The notes under the pieces: generated by a model | What the model was told of the DNA's origin: nothing | Seen by the model: only the letters and a program-made list of their open reading frames with translations | Databases searched by the model: none | Source of the DNA: Patescibacteria group bacterium | Lineage (GTDB): Bacteria > Patescibacteriota > Patescibacteriia > UBA9934 > GWF2-40-263 | Assembly (NCBI GenBank): GCA_041661745.1 | Contig: JBAZTR010000005.1 | Span: forward strand, 3,283-67,282 | Length of the DNA: 64,000 nt | Reading direction: 5' to 3' | Shown here: positions 8,342-51,621 of the stretch, one piece after another | Layout: each line of letters opens with the position of its first letter | Position numbering within the stretch: position 1 is the stretch's first letter | Position numbers and translations under genes: made by a program

Positions 8342-8418
8342 TGGTGGACTCGACGGGACTTGAACCCGTAACTCTAGGTACCAACCCTAAGCGAGGTTAT
8401 CATTACCTCCACGAGCCC
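8342..8418 (-). tRNA. tRNA, probable Pro(UGG), with an atypical anticodon arm
   Basis: The minus-strand sequence is GGGCTCGTGGAGGTAATGATAACCTCGCTTAGGGTTGGTACCTAGAGTTACGGGTTCAAGTCCCGTCGAGTCCACCA. It has a 7-bp acceptor stem, a D arm, a T arm (GGGTTCAAGTCCC) and an encoded CCA. The best anticodon-arm fold is TTAGG/CCTAG with loop GTTGGTA. That fold needs 2 nt between the D and anticodon stems and puts T at position 37. Confidence 0.55.
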
Positions 8419-8490
8419 ATAAACCGACGTTTTGATAAAACAAAACAGCTCCCAAAAAGACACGTTTAAATGTCTAAAGGGGAGCTGTTT

Positions 8491-8538
8491 AGTTGGTACC
8501 TAGAGTTAAGGTTCTTAATTTAGAACCTCGCTTAGATG
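8491..8538 (+). repeat. Inverted partial copy of the adjacent tRNA (anticodon and D-arm segments)
   Basis: GGTACCTAGAGTT (8496-8508) and CCTCGCTTAG (8526-8535) are exact reverse complements of internal segments of the tRNA at 8342-8418. A perfect hairpin GGTTCT-TAATTT-AGAACC lies between them. Confidence 0.5.
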
Positions 8539-8634
8539 TTTTTATTTCATCACAAAATTAATTTTTTGTCAACCCTTCGACCAAGCTCAGGGTTGACCCC
8601 GAGCCTGTCGAGAGGGTCAATGATGTTTTGTGGA

Positions 8635-28984: not shown

Positions 28985-29495
28985 TTTCAGACCCCTCACC
29001 CCTTTCCCCCGCTACTTGCAGATGAGCGGGGCTCTTCCCCTCCCCCAAGGCTGGGAGGGGAGAAAATTTCGGTTTTAATTATTTTAATTACAGAATCAAT
29101 GTCCTTTAAGACTTGTTCGTTTGTAAATCTCAAAATTTTATACCCAAATCCTTCTAAAACATCGCTCCTAAATTTGTCGTGTTCGGAAAAATCTTTCTTT
29201 TGATGAATCGGCCCATCAACCTCAATAATCAATTTAAGAGTGCGGCTACAAAAATCCGTTATAAAATTTTCTATTCCGACTTGCCGAGAAAACTTAACAC
29301 CCAACCTACTGTTTCTTAAACGACGCCAAAGAACTTCTTCAGCCTCCGTACTTTTTTCCCTTAATTCCCTTCGACTCTCTTTAAGTTTAGAAGGGTTCAT
29401 TTTTGGTACTTCTAACATAAAAATCTTGCCCCCTCTCAGCCCCGGGAGAGGGGGATGGCCTCTCTTGATTTGGAGAGGGGTGAGGGATTCGCTAA
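28985..29495. mobile_element. Miniature DUF559 element: the gene is flanked by GC hairpins and ~20-nt terminal inverted repeats
   Basis: Left end CAGACCCCTCACCCCTTTCC (28985-) versus the reverse complement of the right end, GAATCCCTCACCCCTCTCC (-29495). CCCCTCCC...GGGAGGGG hairpins lie inside both flanks. Confidence 0.45.
28996..29418 (-). CDS. DUF559 endonuclease-domain protein (Vsr/restriction-endonuclease-like fold)
   Basis: EEVLWRRLRN...FSRQVGIENFITDF...IIEVDG..H...D..R...L...G..ILRF matches the DUF559 family. A paralog is at 45577-45954. Confidence 0.75.
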   Translation of the reverse strand: MLEVPKMNPSKLKESRRELREKSTEAEEVLWRRLRNSRLGVKFSRQVGIENFITDFCSRTLKLIIEVDGPIHQKKDFSEHDKFRSDVLEGFGYKILRFTNEQVLKDIDSVIKIIKTEIFSPPSLGGGEEPRSSASSGGKG

Positions 29496-29521
29496 CTTGA
29501 TTCTAAACCTATCTAACACCC

Positions 29522-29550
29522 TTGACAAACGGCAATTTTTTTGCTAATCT
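29522..29550 (+). promoter_or_regulatory. Sigma70-type promoter of island 3 (TTGACA-N17-TAATCT)
   Basis: TTGACA lies at 29522-29527 and TAATCT at 29545-29550 with an exact 17-nt spacer. It is followed by a GGCCTGA-GTGAAA-TCAGGCC hairpin in the leader. Confidence 0.5.
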
Positions 29551-29608
29551 AACCCTCCTTGGCCTGAGTGAAATCAGGCCTAAACGTTCCTTGAGACAGG
29601 AGCTGGTC

Positions 29609-29830
29609 ATGCGAGGAAACTTTGGCTGGACCCCAGAGCAGAGAGAAGTGGCCAGGCGTAACGATGCCTGGCGGCGAGAACTGCGGCGCCGCGGAACCCA
29701 GGAAGGTGGCATCGTCGAAAGCGCCGACGATGTCCGGGCCATGCTCGGCAGCGGCGGCCGCTTCCTCGCCCGCTTCTTCCCAGATCGCCCCTCCGATCGT
29801 CTGCCCCCTACTTCACCCGACGATGAGTAG
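29609..29830 (+). CDS. Small hypothetical protein, high-GC island 3 (73 aa, Arg-rich)
   Basis: The ATG at 29609 is preceded by AGGAGCTGG. The GC-rich body reads MRGNFGWTPEQREVARRNDAWRRELRRRG..., and the antisense ORFs look like artifacts. GGGCTTTTTT follows the stop. Confidence 0.4.
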   Translation: MRGNFGWTPEQREVARRNDAWRRELRRRGTQEGGIVESADDVRAMLGSGGRFLARFFPDRPSDRLPPTSPDDE

Positions 29831-29882
29831 AGGGCTTTTTTAATTTTCAATATTCGCTCTTCGATGATAATATATTAACCGT

Positions 29883-31319
29883 ATGCAAACCTCGACTGAT
29901 CAAAAAATCTGGGAAGAAGAACAGCTAATTATTGCTGCAGAAAAACAAAAAACCCCCGAACTTTTTGTAACTTCAAAAAAAGAGCCAGGACAACTTTTTA
30001 CGCGTATCGGTATTCTTGATTATCCAACTTCCTTGCCCAAAGGTTATATAAAATACTCGCCGCTTGATTTTATTGTCGAAGAAATATTACCCGACGACAC
30101 AGTTGTTGATGTAGACAGTTTTAAAACTGACTCAAAGGCGATTATGTCCGGCCAAGGCACAATTTATGCCGATATTGTTAAAGTTGGCATTTCCACGCTT
30201 GATGCGGTTAATCGCATTGCCGAGGCTTTGAACCTTGATCCAAAACAAATCGGCTACGCCGGAATTAAAGATGCTGTTGCCCTAACTTCGCAAACTGTCA
30301 GTTTCCGTGGCGGTGTTACGGTTGAAGAAATTAAAAAACTTTCAGTTCAAGGAGTTATTATAAAAAACGTGGTGGAAGGAAAAGGGGCCGTCCAAATCGG
30401 CGCGCTTAAGGGAAACCATTTTACTTTATTCGTTAGAACGGAAAAACAGATTGACGAAGTCGCTTTTCAAAAAAATATCTCTCTTATCAACGAAAAAGGC
30501 ATTCCCAATTACTTTGGCCCGCAACGTTTTGGCAGTCCGCGCTTTTTGTCGCACTTATTCGGCATGCATTTGCTGCGTGGTGAGCCAAAAGAAGTGGTAA
30601 AAACTTATTTCTTTAAAACCAGTGAATTTGAATATCCATTCGTCACCAATTTACGAAACGAAGCCGCCAAACACTGGGGCGACTGGCCAGCGGTGGAGAA
30701 AATCTTTTCCACACTTCCCTACACCTTTCGTCATGAATTGAAGATATTGGAAACTTTAAAAGAACCGGGCAAACAAGATTCGTTTGTCGAAGCCTTATCA
30801 ACTATCGATCGCCAAGTTGATTTGTGGGCCCGCGCTTACGCCAGTTTTTTAAACAATCTTATTTTTTCCGAAGCCGAAACTGCCAGTCTTCCCTTGCCCG
30901 AGACAACTATTCAACTTTTAACGGAAAATCCCGAAGCACAAAATTTATATGGTAAATGGCTGGCAACACACGGCACCAAAAAATTCGTGGAAAATTTAAA
31001 ACAATTTCGTTTTACCAATTTTATTCACTTGGGCAATGCGGCTATTCCATCGCGCGTTAGGCCACATGTGCATAACTATAAAATTGTCCCCGAAGGCGTG
31101 GCTATTTGTTTTGATTTGCCCAAAGGGGCCTATGCCACCACGGTTTTAATGTTTCTATTCGACACCGTTACCGGCCAGCCTTTTCCTGAATGGATGAGCC
31201 GGACTGATTTTGATTCAAAAGAATTATTAAGTCTTGGTTCAATTGCAGAAATTAAAAAAGCCCTCGGGCCTTCTGTTGAACAGTTGATGTCCAAAAAACA
31301 GGAAGTTGAGGGGGATTAA
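29883..31319 (+). CDS. truD: tRNA pseudouridine(13) synthase TruD/Pus7 family (long form)
   Basis: The TruD signature YAGIKDAVALTSQ (GxKD..A.T.Q) is present. At 478 aa it resembles archaeal/eukaryotic Pus7-like forms rather than the ~350-aa bacterial TruD. Confidence 0.7.
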   Translation: MQTSTDQKIWEEEQLIIAAEKQKTPELFVTSKKEPGQLFTRIGILDYPTSLPKGYIKYSPLDFIVEEILPDDTVVDVDSFKTDSKAIMSGQGTIYADIVKVGISTLDAVNRIAEALNLDPKQIGYAGIKDAVALTSQTVSFRGGVTVEEIKKLSVQGVIIKNVVEGKGAVQIGALKGNHFTLFVRTEKQIDEVAFQKNISLINEKGIPNYFGPQRFGSPRFLSHLFGMHLLRGEPKEVVKTYFFKTSEFEYPFVTNLRNEAAKHWGDWPAVEKIFSTLPYTFRHELKILETLKEPGKQDSFVEALSTIDRQVDLWARAYASFLNNLIFSEAETASLPLPETTIQLLTENPEAQNLYGKWLATHGTKKFVENLKQFRFTNFIHLGNAAIPSRVRPHVHNYKIVPEGVAICFDLPKGAYATTVLMFLFDTVTGQPFPEWMSRTDFDSKELLSLGSIAEIKKALGPSVEQLMSKKQEVEGD

Positions 31320-31326
31320 TTGGTTG

Positions 31327-31360
31327 GGGACTAAGGGACTGGGATACTGAGGGACTGAGT
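31327..31360. repeat. Short tandem repeat, (GGGACTxx) x4
   Basis: GGGACTAAGGGACTGGGATACTGAGGGACTGAG lies immediately after the truD stop. Confidence 0.5.
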
Positions 31361-31380
31361 TTTTGAAAACTTCGTAGATA

Positions 31381-31428
31381 CGCGAACGCCGTGTAGACTG
31401 GTTCCACCCAAGAGGGGTGGGTCTACAC
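31381..31428. terminator. Large bidirectional hairpin between convergent truD and the island-4 gene
   Basis: CGCCGTGTAGAC-tggttccacccaagaggggtgg-GTCTACACGGCG: a 12-bp stem whose loop holds a nested CCACCC/GGGTGG hairpin. Confidence 0.55.
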
Positions 31429-31459
31429 GGCGTGAGTGCGGCTGCGTCTGCTAGTGTGA

Positions 31460-32041
31460 CTAGCGGGGGACGCACCGCATGTGGGCCTCGGTGTCCAGGA
31501 CGCGGAGGTCCCGGATCTCCCCGACCTCGTCGTCGTTGAGGGCGTGGGCCGGATTCACCGTCACACTGCCGTCCGGGTTCCGGAAGCAGTGGACGTGCCC
31601 GAAGGTCCGCCCGAGGATCTCGGTGAGCTTGGCCTGGAGGGCCGGGGACATGTCCAGGGCGGGCTTTCCTGCCTCGAGGACGACGACCAGGAAGTACATC
31701 CGGTCGCCCTCCTTCTGGAACATGGTCAGCCCGGTCACGGACCATCCGAACACCCTGGTCACGTCCGCGAGGACGCAGCGCAGGGAGACGGACTGGCGTC
31801 CCTCGGCCTTCCAACCGAACACCGGCGTGCCGGAGTCGGCCTGGCGGTTGCCGACGGCATCGGTGCGATCGCCGCGGAGGCCGTCGCGGCCGGCGGCACT
31901 GGCGCGCTCGATGTTGCGCTCGGTCAGCTCGGTCTGGCGCTGGGTGGAGCGCACGGTGCAGACGACTCCGAGTCCCTTGAGCATCGCGGCCGCCCGGTCG
32001 TTGATGCGGGGCTTGACGATGAACCTGACGATCTGCGACAT
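31460..32041 (-). CDS. Hypothetical protein, high-GC island 4 (~193 aa)
   Basis: The ATG at 32041-32039 is preceded by GGAGGTTCAA. The protein MSQIVRFIVKPRINDRAAAMLKGLGV... has two VFGW repeats. The overlapping 295-aa (-) and 188/217-aa (+) ORFs are R/G/P-rich antisense artifacts. Confidence 0.45.
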   Translation of the reverse strand: MSQIVRFIVKPRINDRAAAMLKGLGVVCTVRSTQRQTELTERNIERASAAGRDGLRGDRTDAVGNRQADSGTPVFGWKAEGRQSVSLRCVLADVTRVFGWSVTGLTMFQKEGDRMYFLVVVLEAGKPALDMSPALQAKLTEILGRTFGHVHCFRNPDGSVTVNPAHALNDDEVGEIRDLRVLDTEAHMRCVPR

Positions 32042-32133
32042 TTGAACCTCCTGGCGTTGAGCCAGAGTGGTGGGGGGGGGCTGGGTGGAACGAACACTCA
32101 ATCGGACCCTTTCGGATCAGAATCAAGCGTATA

Positions 32134-32691: not shown

Positions 32692-32763
32692 AGTCGCTAT
32701 ATTATATTCGAATTAATGATTATTGCCAAAACAAAAACACGCGAATCGTTTTCGTGTGTTTTT

Positions 32764-32838
32764 GGTCGGGCTGGCGGGACTTGAACCCACGGCCTCTACG
32801 TCCCGAACGTAGCGCTCTACCTACTGAGCTACAGCCCG
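32764..32838 (-). tRNA. tRNA-Pro (anticodon CGG)
   Basis: The minus-strand sequence is CGGGCTGTAGCTCAGTAGGTAGAGCGCTACGTTCGGGACGTAGAGGCCGTGGGTTCAAGTCCCGCCAGCCCGACCA. It folds into a canonical cloverleaf with a C1-G72 pair, anticodon loop TTCGGGA and an encoded CCA. Confidence 0.85.
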
Positions 32839-32845
32839 ATATTTT

Positions 32846-32919
32846 TGGTGGCTGTAGCGAAGTATAAACTACTGCCCCGCCTCTGGCGGGGTCCCGCTAT
32901 AAGCGGGAAGCTACAGCCC
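32846..32919 (-). ncRNA. tRNA-like structured element adjacent to tRNA-Pro (non-canonical; possible tRNA remnant or regulatory RNA)
   Basis: The minus-strand sequence is GGGCTGTAGC-TTCCCGCTTATAGCGGGA-CCCCGCCAGAGGCGGGG-CAGTAGTTTATACTTC-GCTACAGCC-ACCA. It has a 9-10-bp closing stem identical to the tRNA-Pro 5' end, two perfect internal hairpins, and a 3' ACCA. There is no GTTC T-loop. Confidence 0.35.
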
Positions 32920-33033
32920 GATGCGAAAAAAGTATATATAACTTTACGGTTTTTGGCAAGATTACAAACTTCCATCCTTGCCACTTTTAAATTTTTATGT
33001 TTCAATCTCCCCAACATAAGACGACGGAGGCTT

Positions 33034-33266
33034 GTGTGAAAAACGCTCTTTTGATTGCCGTCGGCATCGGACTGTTCTCCCTTGGCACGGTCATCCACGA
33101 ATTATCCGTGTTCTTCAATACCTTTATCGGCTTCACAGCTCTCATGTACAAATGGCCACTTGAAGCTTTTGAATGCTTCAGTCTAATCATGATCCTAGCA
33201 CTAGGCGTTGCTTCTTCGACCAAGGCGCGCACTTATGAAGACGAAAAGGATGACGACCCAGGCTAG
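33034..33266 (+). CDS. Small hypothetical membrane protein (~77 aa)
   Basis: A GTG start at 33034 is preceded by GGAGGCTTGT. Two TM helices and an acidic tail. A CCAGC-cac-CAGCTGG+T6 terminator follows. Confidence 0.35.
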
Positions 33267-37983: not shown

Positions 37984-38466
37984 TTACGAAACTACGAAAG
38001 ACTACTAAACTACGAAAGTTTTTGGTCGACGTTAATTATTTTTGGTTTTAAAATTCTTTGGTAAGTCACACCTTTTTCTGAAAAACGGATTAACAAACCT
38101 AATTCTGTTTTAGTATTAGCCAAATATTGCTTAATTTGTTCAAAATCTGATGTTTTAAATTGTCCAGAAGATTTTATTTCAACCACGACCGTATCTTCCA
38201 CTATAAAATCCAAAATATATTTTCCAACCACCACTTCTTGATATTTAAGAGGAATACTTACCTCTCGTTTAAATTTCAAGTCCCTCTTTCCAAAAGCAAC
38301 CATCAAGGCTTTTTGTAAATATCTTTCTTTGTGTTGACCGCCGATCTCTTTAAAAACATCGAAACATGCGCCAACTATTTCATAGCTTAAATCCGGTTGT
38401 ATAAGGTCATCTCTTTTAAGCTTCGACACAATTTCGTAGTTTCGTATTTTTTCGTTGTTTCGTAAC
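37984..38466. mobile_element. Miniature element: GxxExxY-family gene bounded by ~35-nt terminal inverted repeats
   Basis: Left end GTTACGAAACTACGAAAGACTACTAAACTACGAAAG versus the reverse complement of the right end, GTTACGAAACAACGAAAAAATACGAAACTACGAAAAT. Confidence 0.5.
38010..38429 (-). CDS. GxxExxY-family protein (PD-(D/E)xK-like small selfish-element protein)
   Basis: EIVGACFDVFKEIGGQHKERYLQKAL...LDFIVEDTVVVEIKS...GLLIRF fits the GxxExxY family pattern. The motif is a GxxxExY variant. Confidence 0.65.
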   Translation of the reverse strand: MSKLKRDDLIQPDLSYEIVGACFDVFKEIGGQHKERYLQKALMVAFGKRDLKFKREVSIPLKYQEVVVGKYILDFIVEDTVVVEIKSSGQFKTSDFEQIKQYLANTKTELGLLIRFSEKGVTYQRILKPKIINVDQKLS

Positions 38467-45502: not shown

Positions 45503-45570
45503 TGTTCAATAGCAATCCTCCACCCCAACCCTCCCCCAATAGGGGAGGGAGAACCAGTTTCAGAGGAAGG
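45503..45570. repeat. GC hairpin repeat, left flank of DUF559 gene 2 (direct copy of 45943-46000)
   Basis: AATCCTCCACCCCAACCCTCCCCCAATAGGGGAGGGAGAACCAGTTTCAGA matches the right-flank copy at about 90%. Confidence 0.55.
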
Positions 45571-45576
45571 ACTAAA

Positions 45577-45954
45577 CTAAAGATTTTCCTTTATTTTCTT
45601 GACTACTGCTTCTGGATTATCCAAAACTTCTTCGTTCTTAAAGTGCAGAATCTTAAAACCCAAACCTTTTAAGTCTTCACTTCGGATTAAATCGTATTCG
45701 GCAATATCTTTCTTTAAATGAATCTTTCCATCTAATTCAATGACTAATTTTTTGCTTCGACAACAAAAATCAACAATATATCTGCCAATACCAACTTGCC
45801 GATAAAAAATAGCCCCCAGCTCTTTACGACGCAAATACTGCCAAAGAACAACTTCGGCGTCGGTTTGGTTATTTCTTAAAACTCTCCGAGTTTCTTTAAG
45901 CTTACTAGAATTAAAAACCTGTTTGTCGGACATAATATTAATCCTCCTCCCCAT
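45577..45954 (-). CDS. DUF559 endonuclease-domain protein (paralog of 28996-29418)
   Basis: AEVVLWQYLRRKELGAIFYRQVGIGRYIVDFCCRSKKLVIELDGKIH...GFKILHF is collinear with the first DUF559 protein. Confidence 0.75.
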   Translation of the reverse strand: MGRRINIMSDKQVFNSSKLKETRRVLRNNQTDAEVVLWQYLRRKELGAIFYRQVGIGRYIVDFCCRSKKLVIELDGKIHLKKDIAEYDLIRSEDLKGLGFKILHFKNEEVLDNPEAVVKKIKENL

Positions 45955-46033
45955 CCCTCCCCCAATGGGGGAGGGAGAGCTGATTTCAGACGCCGGTCTT
46001 CCCCTCCCTTTGGGAGGGGATAAGAGAGGAAGG
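45943..46033. repeat. GC hairpin repeat, right flank of DUF559 gene 2, plus a second TCTTCCCCTCCC-TTT-GGGAGGGGA hairpin
   Basis: AATCCTCCTCCCCATCCCTCCCCCAATGGGGGAGGGAGAGCTGATTTCAGA is followed by CGGTCTTCCCCTCCCTTTGGGAGGGGATAAGAG. Confidence 0.55.
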
Positions 46034-50227: not shown

Positions 50228-50289
50228 GAAATCTGATATAATAAGACAGTCCCCACCGTAGCTCGTCTCGAGCGAAGGGGGACTGTTTT

Positions 50290-51621
50290 ATGAAATTCGC
50301 AAAAAAAATGGAGCCTGTATCCTCAAGCGACATCCGTCCGAAGTCGAGCTTAGCTCGACGAAGGCGGATAAAAAATCTTTTTAAAATCATTGGCCCGGGT
50401 TTTATTACCGGTGCCTCTGACGATGACCCGTCGGGCATTGCCACTTATTCGCAATCCGGCGCGCGTTTTGGTTACACTCAACTCTGGACAGCTCTCTTTA
50501 CCACCCCGTTCATGATCGTTATTCAAGAAATGTGCGGACGAATAGGAATGGTTAAGGGTCGTGGCCTGGCTTTAGCCATTAAGGAACGTTATGGCCGAAA
50601 GATTCTTTTCCCGATTGTTTTGCTTTTGGTTATTGCCAACACTATCAATATCGGTGCCGACCTTGGAGCTATGGCCGCCTCGGCGCAGTTGATTATTGGC
50701 TTACCGTTTATTTTTCTGTTAATTGGCATGACTATTTTGACTTTAGTTTTAGAAATTTTTGTCAGTTACAAAGTCTATGCCAAATATTTAAAATATCTCG
50801 CCTTGTCCCTGTTCGCTTACGTTATTGTCGTCTTTATCGTTAAGCAAGATTGGAACGCCATTGCTGTCGCAACTTTTATTCCAAAGATAAGTTTTAATCA
50901 AGATTATCTGATGGCTATTGTCGCCATCCTTGGCACCACTATTTCCCCTTATCTTTTCTTTTGGCAATCAAACGAGGAGGTGGAAGAAGAAGTGGCTGAC
51001 GGAAAACTCAAGTCCATGGATCATGGTACGCCCAAAGTAACCTCAATCGACATTCGCCGCATGCGCTGGGACACGATTATTGGTATGATTTTTTCCAACT
51101 TAATCATGTTTTTTATTATCGCTACGGCCGCTTCAACACTTTTTGCCAACGGAATTACCAATGTTGAAACCGCCGAGCAAGCCGCTTTGGCCTTGCGCCC
51201 CTTGGCCGGAAACTTTGCTTCCCTGCTCTTTCTTATTGGCATTATGGGCGTCGGCCTCTTAGGCGTGCCAGTTCTGGCCGGTTCAGCTTCATATGCCGTG
51301 GCCGAATTATTTGGTTGGAAATCCGGTTTGTATCGAAAATTCAAAGCCGCTCACGGCTTTTATGGCATTATAACTCTGGCTACTTTGGTTGGCCTTTTAG
51401 TAAACTTTCTCGGTATTCAATCATTTACCATGCTTTATTATGCGGCCATTATTAATGGAATCGTTGCCCCAATTCTAATGGTGGCAATAGTCATGTTGGC
51501 TGGTGATAAAAAAACAATGGGAAAATTTGCCAGTCCCAAAGTTTTATCAATCGCCGGTTGGTTAATTACGGCCTTTATGGCCGCGGCGGCCGGTTTGTTA
51601 ATTTACAGTTTACTCACATAA
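50290..51621 (+). CDS. mntH: Nramp-family divalent metal cation transporter (MntH-like)
   Basis: GPGFITGASDDDPSGIATYSQSGARFGY is the Nramp consensus. The protein has 11-12 TM helices. Confidence 0.85.
   Translation: MKFAKKMEPVSSSDIRPKSSLARRRRIKNLFKIIGPGFITGASDDDPSGIATYSQSGARFGYTQLWTALFTTPFMIVIQEMCGRIGMVKGRGLALAIKERYGRKILFPIVLLLVIANTINIGADLGAMAASAQLIIGLPFIFLLIGMTILTLVLEIFVSYKVYAKYLKYLALSLFAYVIVVFIVKQDWNAIAVATFIPKISFNQDYLMAIVAILGTTISPYLFFWQSNEEVEEEVADGKLKSMDHGTPKVTSIDIRRMRWDTIIGMIFSNLIMFFIIATAASTLFANGITNVETAEQAALALRPLAGNFASLLFLIGIMGVGLLGVPVLAGSASYAVAELFGWKSGLYRKFKAAHGFYGIITLATLVGLLVNFLGIQSFTMLYYAAIINGIVAPILMVAIVMLAGDKKTMGKFASPKVLSIAGWLITAFMAAAAGLLIYSLLT

Follow-up and report, generated by a model that had tools for sequence, protein, structure and literature searches.

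The tRNA-Pro(CGG) gene of a Patescibacteria group bacterium is preceded by a strongly folded element, ending in ACCA, that an initial annotation of the sequence had described as tRNA-like. We analyzed this element in a window of 64,000 nts (assembly GCA_041661745.1, contig JBAZTR010000005.1, positions 3,283 to 67,282) and in related genomes. The results largely establish that the element is the remainder of a tandem tRNA-Pro(CGG) duplicate in which the first 12-18 nts and the leader were kept, that a GC-rich nested hairpin lies at the position of the D loop, that the 5' end of the tRNA itself, as its reverse complement, has taken the place of the rest of the duplicate, and that the locus follows the plan copy a - hairpins - inverted a' - A-rich spacer - a plus the rest of the tRNA. 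In our leading explanation, in which we place about even confidence, the remodelled duplicate has been kept as a self-closing 5' leader whose helices are constrained through pre-tRNA folding.

Origin and fold of the element

The initial annotation had read the minus-strand sequence exactly and had noted that the element shares the first 10 nts of tRNA-Pro. This sharing is real and extends further, to an exact direct repeat of 14 nts, ATCGGGCTGTAGCT, that includes leader nucleotides (Table 1). By rough arithmetic, the chance of a 14-nt exact repeat 82 nts apart is ~5e-4 per 500-nt region; the 10-mer shared with the tRNA start has, alone, no window-wide significance. At its other extremity, the element reads TTCGC-TA-CAGCC--ACCAAAAA, which aligns with the 3' end and trailer of the tRNA, CCCGC--CAGCCCGACCAAAAA. 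Because ACCAAAAA matches the tRNA 3' end and trailer, the ACCA is probably left over from a tandem tRNA copy that was once complete, rather than serving as a functional CCA end. In one related locus, L002 (L-numbers designate tRNA-Pro loci in related genomes or metagenome contigs), a long pseudo-tRNA lies upstream of the tRNA. GC hairpins have been inserted in its D loop, its anticodon arm is intact and half of its T arm is left; of the D stem it retains the 3' strand and of the T stem the 5' strand, and it looks like an intermediate stage of the remodelling. Combined, the 14-nt 5' identity including the leader, the 3' alignment and the L002 intermediate place the element among remnants of tandem tRNA duplicates, and the proposal that it is a degenerate tRNA copy was right as to its origin.

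The element also has the a / a' / a order of a template-switch or inverted-duplication hairpin, the anti-strand GCTACAGCC matching the upstream copy at 9/9 positions and the tRNA over 15 nts (87%). The origin of the hairpin is consistent with template switching, the mechanism itself being beyond the reach of sequence alone. Being the reverse complement of tRNA nts 3-11, the anti-strand can pair either with the upstream copy or with the genuine 5' strand of the tRNA.

The minimum free energy (MFE) of the element is -44.1 kcal/mol, compared to -23.7 +/- 2.9 kcal/mol for 200 dinucleotide shuffles (z = -6.98), none of which was as stable. The long closing stem described initially is present over 9 bp (GGCTGTAGC/GCTACAGCC), except that its first G is unpaired: both C1 and G2 of the element lack a partner. 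The two perfect GC hairpins, with 7-bp stems and 3-nt loops, were found as described, and in the MFE fold they form a four-way junction together with an additional 4-bp hairpin. Folding energy did not discriminate between sense and antisense as the structured strand, and the clues to the strand conflict: G.U pairs in L008 and L027 favour the tRNA strand, and one A.C in the L008 hairpin would favour the opposite strand.

A promoter-like site lies immediately upstream of the element, which assigns the element to the leader of the tRNA. From the conservation of this site and the single terminator-like hairpin downstream, the tRNA promoter would also drive the element, which would form the 5' leader of the pre-tRNA, with a predicted transcription start at ~32924 (-), 4-6 nts ahead of the closing stem.

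Homologous elements in related lineages

Relatives were searched with the first 25-28 nts of the tRNA, a probe that is unbiased regarding the element, in species-representative genomes and metagenome contigs. This search recovered 15 loci from Candidatus Uhrbacteria and other Patescibacteria metagenome-assembled genomes, and 24 further loci were reached through the neighbouring methyltransferase and CobO genes; two methyltransferase homologues (P0013, P0021) and one CobO homologue had no tRNA nearby. The initial annotation had called for the element to be sought beside tRNA-Pro in related genomes. It was found there, with the same promoter and tRNA, in at least five other Uhrbacteria lineages (L010, L008, L024, L027 and L035-38). 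In all of them, a direct copy of tRNA nts 1-12(-18) is followed by a nested hairpin rich in GC, after which tRNA nts 3-11(-18) return as their reverse complement. The shared order begins with CGGGCTGTAGCT (the copy of tRNA nts 1-12), followed by a hairpin that we call HP-A (outer 6-bp stem, UUC, inner stem, UUC, outer stem) and a linker of the CAAG type. It continues with CAGTAGG-loop-CCTAC(T), the tRNA D-loop sequence and its complement, which is absent in L035, and ends with UC, GCTACAGCC (the complement of tRNA nts 3-11) and an A-rich spacer terminating in CAU. The segment CCTAC(T)TCGCTACAGCC of the homologues is thereby the reverse complement of tRNA nts 3-19 except for a 2-nt internal loop. 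The AGTAGG/CCTACT of the homologues is the counterpart of hairpin 3 of the window. The promoter-like sequence TTGCCA-17-TATACT/TATAGT precedes the element in L010, L024, L008 and L035, and directly precedes the tRNA in L025, L034 and L030, which lack the element.

Two features of the window element were not shared. The 3' ends of the homologues read GCC-AAAAAG, GCC-AUAAAA, GCU-UCAAAA, GCU-AAGAUA and GCC-GGAAAA, and none of L010, L024, L008, L027 and L035 carries ACCA; the A-CCA end noted initially is present in the DNA of the window, is absent from all homologues, and has no support as the 3' end of an RNA. The homologues fold into three-way junctions or a bulged hairpin, and the four-way, cloverleaf-like junction is seen in the window only.

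More decayed forms occur in four further, more distant lineages. In L003 and L015, the duplicated 5' end is closed by a different partner, ATCGG/CCGAT; in L013, a stub alone remains; the fourth is the pseudo-tRNA of L002. In L008, an additional decayed hairpin unit lies upstream of the main element.

The element is dispensable

Clean empty sites were identified in L034, L025/26, L030 and L017-20, and their presence in close relatives indicates that the element is dispensable. In L034 (CobO 89% identical, first 50 tRNA nts matching those of the window), the leader TTCTTCGCGAT is joined straight to CGGG. In L025/26, the leader is that of L010 up to ...AAAAACAT and the tRNA follows immediately. 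The direct repeats, 14-19 nts long depending on the lineage, are obvious end points for deletion or duplication. Among the loci examined, the element was never present where the tRNA is of a second allelic form (CGGGCTGTGGCGCAGTTGG...).

The two allelic forms are distinct tRNA-Pro(CGG) sequences that occupy the same locus, with the same promoter and leader, in closely related genomes. Their D arms read GCTCAGTAGGTAGAGC and GGCGCAGTTGGTAGCGCG, and they differ elsewhere as well (L016, L021, L022/23 and L025/26 versus the window, L010, L008 and others), which suggests allelic replacement of the tRNA gene. In alleles without an encoded CCA, ~10 bp of complementarity between leader and trailer extend the acceptor stem, whereas CCA-encoding alleles lack it (flanks of L002, L007/L009, L013 and L016); examples are GGATATTGTGT, tRNA, ACACAATATC in L002 and TATACTCTGT, tRNA, ACAGAGTATA in L016. 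In L013, a cassette with such leader-trailer complementarity lies between the 5' stub and the 3' stub (GTCCCGCTAGCCCGACCA) of an older tRNA-Pro gene.

Helices are retained across diverged lineages

Divergence between the window, L010 and L008 is high, with a synonymous divergence (dS) of 0.95-1.45 in CobO and 47-60% identity at 4-fold sites. The loops, linkers and spacers of the element have fully diverged and the helices are kept. Covariation was assessed on an alignment of five sequences; since MAFFT misplaced the hairpins when the window sequence was included, this alignment was used together with a manual segmentation. In the five-sequence alignment, 94% of pair cells are standard, compared to 29-46% when partners are slid, and four pairs change on both sides. 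The covariation score was reached by 1/500 shuffles, a weak control given the few (five) related sequences. In the manual segmentation, the closing stem is paired in 54/54 cells.

The outer stem of HP-A illustrates this pattern: it reads TCCCGC/GCGGGA in the window, TCCCAC/GCGGGA in L008, TCCGCC/GGCGGA in L010, TCCACC/GGTGGA in L024 and TCCTCC/GGAGGA in L035, so that position 4 is C-G, G-C, A-U or U-A depending on the lineage. The inner stems also vary yet pair (GCC/GGC, GCCU/AGGC, GCUC/GAGC). In L027, the tRNA carries C6 in place of U6, and since this change is mirrored both in the upstream copy and in the anti-strand, the element tracks its own tRNA.

Tests for tRNAs and known RNA families

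ARAGORN called a single tRNA at this locus (32763-32838) and did not call the element, and the Rfam tRNA model RF00005 gave no second match on the element even at E <= 10. The fold departs from a cloverleaf in having 3-nt loops and a closing stem of 9 bp, and it lacks a T-loop, a D-loop and a 7-nt anticodon loop. A canonical tRNA and a detectable tRNA pseudogene are ruled out by these three results, in agreement with the earlier view that this is no canonical tRNA and has no T-loop. The best other Rfam match was YrlA, with 20.1 bits against a gathering score of 69 bits, and derived mostly from the D arm of the real tRNA. No known Rfam family matched the element in the window or in three homologous loci (L024, L027, L035). 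A transcription-attenuation leader or riboswitch of the T-box type was rejected as well: no terminator-like site was seen between the element and the tRNA, and no Rfam cis-regulatory family matched in the window or in these three loci. The alternative pairing available in the leader alters tRNA folding and not termination.

Pre-tRNA folding and competing explanations

Nearest-neighbour modelling gave P = 0.98 for capture of the tRNA 3' strand, and thereby of the acceptor stem, by a naked duplicate. The genuine acceptor stem had a predicted probability of 0.18, which fell to 0.02 once the anti-strand was shuffled. The transcript has a predicted alternative fold, in which genuine tRNA nts 3-11(-18) are bound by the anti-strand and the acceptor stem is made with the upstream copy. 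On this modelling, the helices probably matter through their effect on pre-tRNA folding. The upstream copy would zip onto the inverted strand during transcription, giving a very stable hairpin or junction, and once closed in this way, the duplicated 5' strand would be unable to take the place of its genuine counterpart in the acceptor stem. Next, the tRNA would fold and RNase P would cut at U(-1)/C(+1), freeing a structured leader of ~85 nts. This is a weaker sense in which the processing signal proposed in the initial annotation may be retained, as a structured 5' leader for RNase P removal. The constraint on the helices would arise from the fold choice of the pre-tRNA and not from any tRNA identity of the element. 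As a duplicated 5' strand in the same transcript would be a hazard, selection would have a reason to lock the duplicate in a hairpin, and if locking is the selected property, the different closing partners of distant lineages are explained. Deletion of the whole element between the direct repeats would be equally acceptable, which would account for the patchy distribution.

Several points weigh against this explanation. The covariation is based on 5-6 sequences, and the window version is without the UUC/UUC internal loop and the CAAG linker conserved in its homologues. Template switching or gene conversion from a selected tRNA gene could preserve stems and repeats without any function. The strand-swapped fold is about iso-energetic with the sequestered fold in the window (-76.8 versus -77.9 kcal/mol; 81% of the ensemble) and is favoured by 4-6 kcal/mol in L010, L008 and L035; as the equilibrium model does not favour the sequestered fold, a protective role would depend on co-transcriptional order and on tRNA tertiary structure. 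The folding model ignores both tertiary structure and folding order, so that fold energies do not decide. The promoter, the start site and the RNase P cleavage are all predictions from sequence. Finally, the absence of the element from several close relatives means that any benefit is small.

The main rival has the same origin and no function: stems and identity with the tRNA would be kept by template switching, gene conversion or re-duplication in a relic on its way to loss. We regard this as possible but doubtful. It agrees with a distribution that is patchy, with deletions that end cleanly at the direct repeats, with the graded series of decay (the extra unit of L008, then L003, L015, L013 and L002), with the loss of the conserved unpaired motifs from the window copy and with the concerted evolution of leader nts -1 to -3 in both repeats (CAT/CAT; TTT/TTT in L027), and there is documented precedent for RNA stems being created and repaired by template switching (PMC8794818). 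However, the element has kept intact helices across a dS of ~1-1.4 in small, gene-dense genomes, and it survives between direct repeats that make a hairpin prone to deletion. Conversion by the tRNA cannot account for four Watson-Crick pair types at one position of HP-A or for covariation of its inner stems, and the unpaired UUC/UUC and CAAG are conserved in most homologues. The leader could also be a selected bistable strand-swap device that gates RNase P maturation of a single tRNA, one state maturing the tRNA and the other hiding the proper RNase P site and yielding a long precursor, inactive or differently processed; a factor, temperature or Mg2+ would then set the ratio of the states and hence the supply of tRNA-Pro(CGG), and in an extreme form the product would be a tRNA with an excisable ~82-nt insertion in its D loop. 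On these modelled folds we consider such a gate unlikely. The two states lie within ~1 kcal/mol in the window and the swapped state is the favoured one in the three homologues mentioned above; moreover, nts 1-2 of the upstream copy and leader nts -1 to -3 are conserved though unpaired in the closed state, and are needed solely for the swapped acceptor stem or the RNase P site. Yet bistability follows from any a / a' / a arrangement and is thus no evidence of design, neither a ligand nor a sensor element is evident, no known RNA family matches and close relatives dispense with the element.

Two further explanations rank, with the regulatory switch, below the neutral relic. The initial annotation had raised the possibility of a copy left by a mobile element, and as an attachment-site (att) remnant of a tRNA-targeting integrative element the candidate was rejected: the repeat is of the tRNA 5' end, only 68 nts separate the copies, the neighbours are housekeeping genes, no integrase or transposase was found among the nearby open reading frames (ORFs), the 64-kb window contains no further tRNA-Pro(CGG) fragment that could mark a distant border, and neither the tRNA start nor the element junction was found in viral contigs. 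In a looser form, an integrative element or a small hairpin transposon would have targeted the tRNA gene and since been mostly deleted, leaving the direct repeats as attL/attR-like remnants, which we judge very unlikely. The insert between the direct repeats is indeed short; GC hairpins belonging to one family with those of the element are found elsewhere between genes (in the window, L007, L010 and L022) and in the T-loop position of partial tRNA copies (L002, L004); an exact 21-nt copy of the tRNA 3' end lies 63 nts downstream in L004/L014; and relatives show the locus to be a hot spot of selfish genes (GIY-YIG, 23S_rRNA_IVP). Integrases, however, duplicate the 3' part of a tRNA gene, whereas this repeat is of the 5' end, is of variable length (14-19 nts) and reaches into the leader; the hairpin family is low-copy, and transposition leaves unexplained that the insert holds an inverted copy of the target itself. 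The possibility that appears most remote of all is a functional tRNA mimic or stand-alone small RNA, a cloverleaf-like RNA of ~74 nts ending in ACCA that RNase P and 3' trimming would produce and that would be recognised by tRNA-binding enzymes such as the CCA-adding enzyme or a synthetase, or would act as a decoy. The 9-bp stem of the window followed by A-CCA could plausibly serve as an RNase P model substrate, the stability of the fold is very high and the 3' end reads CCACCA. Against this, the ACCA, the four-way junction and hairpin 2 are missing from every homologue, C1 and G2 are unpaired, and both the loops expected of a tRNA and any match to a tRNA model or a sufficient YrlA score are lacking, as described above. 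The suggestion of a tRNA-mimic regulatory RNA was not borne out, its ACCA and four-arm shape being unique to this genome. These two features are best explained, with a confidence that we again put near even, as lineage-specific accidents of the history of the element. A remodelled duplicate held as a self-closing leader is the explanation that we retain.

Organization of the locus

The coordinates of the element, of its parts and of the flanking signals are compiled in Table 1. The flanking genes encode TruD, an S-adenosylmethionine (SAM)-methyltransferase, a small membrane ORF, CobO and a class II ribonucleotide reductase. A coding reading of the region, ORF 32829-33098(-), was dismissed because it spans the promoter, the element and the start of the tRNA.

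Table 1. Coordinates of the element, its parts and the neighbouring transcription signals in the window
Feature	Position	Strand	Remarks
Promoter-like site	32959-32931	-	-35 TTGCCA (32959-32954), 17-nt spacer, -10 TATACT (32936-32931); pattern match only, 10/12 positions
Element	32922-32846	-	Between promoter-like site and tRNA-Pro(CGG)
Distal copy of 14-nt direct repeat ATCGGGCTGTAGCT	32909..32922	-	Leader nts -2, -1 and tRNA nts 1-12; 100% identical to 32827-32840
Closing stem, 5' strand GGCTGTAGC (= tRNA nts 3-11)	32910..32918	-	MFE fold and repeat search; paired in all six homologues
GC hairpin 1, TCCCGCT-TAT-AGCGGGA	32892..32908	-	At the position of the nested HP-A hairpin of the homologues
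GC hairpin 2, CCCCGCC-AGA-GGCGGGG	32875..32891	-	Lineage-specific; no counterpart in homologues, no other copy in the window
Hairpin 3, AGTA-GTTTA-TACT	32861..32873	-	5' strand is tRNA D-loop sequence (C)AGTAG, 3' strand its complement
Anti-strand GCTACAGCC	32850..32858	-	Closing stem, 3' strand; reverse complement of tRNA nts 3-11
ACCA (32849-32846) and 7-nt A/U-rich spacer AAAATAT	32839..32849	-	Ends in U(-1) before tRNA nt 1
tRNA-Pro(CGG)	32763..32838	-	ARAGORN; Rfam RF00005, 70.8 bits; C1-G72, A73, encoded CCA
Intrinsic-terminator-like hairpin and T-run	32727..32762	-	Closes the transcript of element and tRNA

The unit formed by promoter, element and tRNA is flipped in the window and in L003 with respect to L010 (6830-6990), L008 (1830-1995) and L004, the orientation of the flanking methyltransferase and CobO genes being unchanged. 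In the window, this unit is bounded by a perfect 9-nt inverted repeat, TTGCCAAAA/TTTTGGCAA, at 32723-32731 and 32951-32959, which corresponds to the -35 regions of the tRNA and methyltransferase promoters.

Other occurrences of the GC hairpin and insertions at the locus

Nested GC hairpins of the HP-A design occur elsewhere: at 50248-50286 and 50345-50385 (-) in the window, at 7838-7876 in L007, at 3176-3200 in L010 and downstream of the tRNA in L022. Their plan consists of an outer GC stem, UUC, a covarying inner stem, U(U/A)C and the outer stem. The two hairpins of the window are located just upstream of and inside the start of ORF 50290-51621(+) and are antisense to this gene, so that the orientation of the hairpin relative to transcription is not fixed. 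The module is present in ~1-2 extra copies per 64 kb and no mobility features were seen; a strict scan of the 64 kb returned only one further copy, which speaks against a high-copy hairpin repeat.

In L004 (3668-3827, equivalent to L014 6090-6249), the tRNA is identical to that of the window and there is no upstream element. The 21-nt copy of its 3' end found downstream, CAAGTCCCGCCAGCCCGACCA, is preceded by GTGGGTT and a double GC hairpin (TCCGGCCTAAAGGCCGGA CCCGGCCTTTAGGCCAGG) of the same form as the two of the window. This downstream segment is a partial copy of the 3' part of the tRNA, in which hairpins occupy the position of the T-loop. Small genes of selfish type were also present at the locus in relatives: a GIY-YIG endonuclease gene between the tRNA and the methyltransferase in L028-30, and 23S_rRNA_IVP/bAvd-like genes in L021 and L027. 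These insertions identify the neighbourhood as an insertion hot spot.

Other features of the window

The second tRNA-Pro gene of the window, tRNA-Pro(TGG) (8342-8418, -), is atypical, with 37 bits in Rfam, a G1-C72 pair and U at position 37. Inverted copies of its body lie upstream: 8492-8511 is 95% complementary to 8366-8385 over 20 nts, and 8524-8535 is perfectly complementary to 8387-8398 over 12 nts. A terminator-like hairpin (8439-8494) is followed by TTTTGTTTT, 18 nts before tRNA nt 1, and a promoter-like site TTGACA-17-TGAAAT is located at ~8571-8541. In the MFE fold of region 8342-8575 (-), the upstream anti-segment pairs with the tRNA body (z = -7.4). Since inverted self-copies are found here too, both tRNA genes of the window have upstream self-complementary leaders. 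This gives a little encouragement to the idea of a strand-swap gate, and is a hint that 'anti-tRNA' leaders may be more widespread in these bacteria.

Between TruD and the methyltransferase, positions 31300-32130 form an island of 67-70% GC in a genome of ~45% GC. This island contains an ORF of ~193 aa (32040-31460, -; MSQIVRFIVKPRIND...) that has no Pfam match, is followed by a hairpin and looks like a foreign gene; in L010, the interval between TruD and the methyltransferase is 3 kb. A smaller patch of 59% GC is present at 29500-29850. At 45510-45995, an ORF of 125 aa (45577-45954, -) lies between direct repeats of ~45 nts, each with a TCCCTCCCCCAAT(A/G)GGGGAGGGA hairpin, an arrangement that would fit the insertion of a small selfish gene accompanied by duplication of a hairpin site. 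The gene at 28996-29418 has a DUF559 match in Pfam, and a PD-(D/E)XK nuclease gene is found at 38010-38429.

Significance

The analysis removes a tempting false lead, as the element is neither a novel tRNA nor a CCA-ended tRNA mimic. It indicates that a duplicated start of a tRNA gene, instead of decaying, can become a stable and conserved leader structure through the insertion of hairpins and the addition of an inverted self-copy. For the small, gene-dense genomes of the candidate phyla radiation (CPR), it is unusual that an 85-nt structure is held across saturating synonymous divergence, and equally that a pre-tRNA is predicted to choose between two alternative 5' strands. If this fold choice affects maturation, the locus would offer a simple example of a single tRNA controlled in cis by the leader that it carries; if it has no effect, the locus would show in a clean natural setting how mutational processes maintain RNA-like stems that have no function.

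Comparison with known systems

Tandem inversion duplications, with the order a / inverted a / a, have been described in Salmonella, and the element shares this order. In E. coli, 3'ETS-leuZ is a tRNA external transcribed spacer with a role of its own and the tyrT operon carries tRNA-linked repeats. As in these systems, sequence outside the tRNA would share its transcript and be freed on processing, and partial tRNA repeats are known from tRNA operon spacers; however, those are 3' spacers or repeats of the 3' end, and the element of the window has no evident base-pairing target or sponge role. With tRNA-like RNAs (the tRNA-like domain of tmRNA, YrlA and Y RNA-like RNAs, viral tRNA-like structures), it has in common, in this genome only, a closed multi-arm fold with an acceptor-like stem followed by ACCA. 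It differs from them in having no T-arm or T-loop mimic, and neither its CCA end nor its junction is conserved.

No precedent for an inverted self-copy in a bacterial tRNA leader was found in the literature. Fragments of prokaryotic tRNA genes beside intact genes, mostly 3' parts, have been attributed to integrating elements or CRISPR activity (van der Gulik et al. 2023, PMC9897764). These also are pieces of a tRNA gene that adjoin an intact gene and can be mistaken for a tRNA, but the element consists of the 5' part and leader joined to an inverted self-copy, has no integrated element beside it and is a conserved folded leader in several lineages. Short-range template switching creates, repairs and maintains RNA stems and hairpins (Monttinen & Loytynoja 2022, PMC8794818). 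The products of this process resemble the element in that a reverse-complement copy lies next to its source, the stem is perfect and multi-base 'compensatory' changes occur; what distinguishes the element is its tiny scale (~18-22 nts), its source, which is the start of a tRNA gene, and the location of the product inside a pre-tRNA leader.

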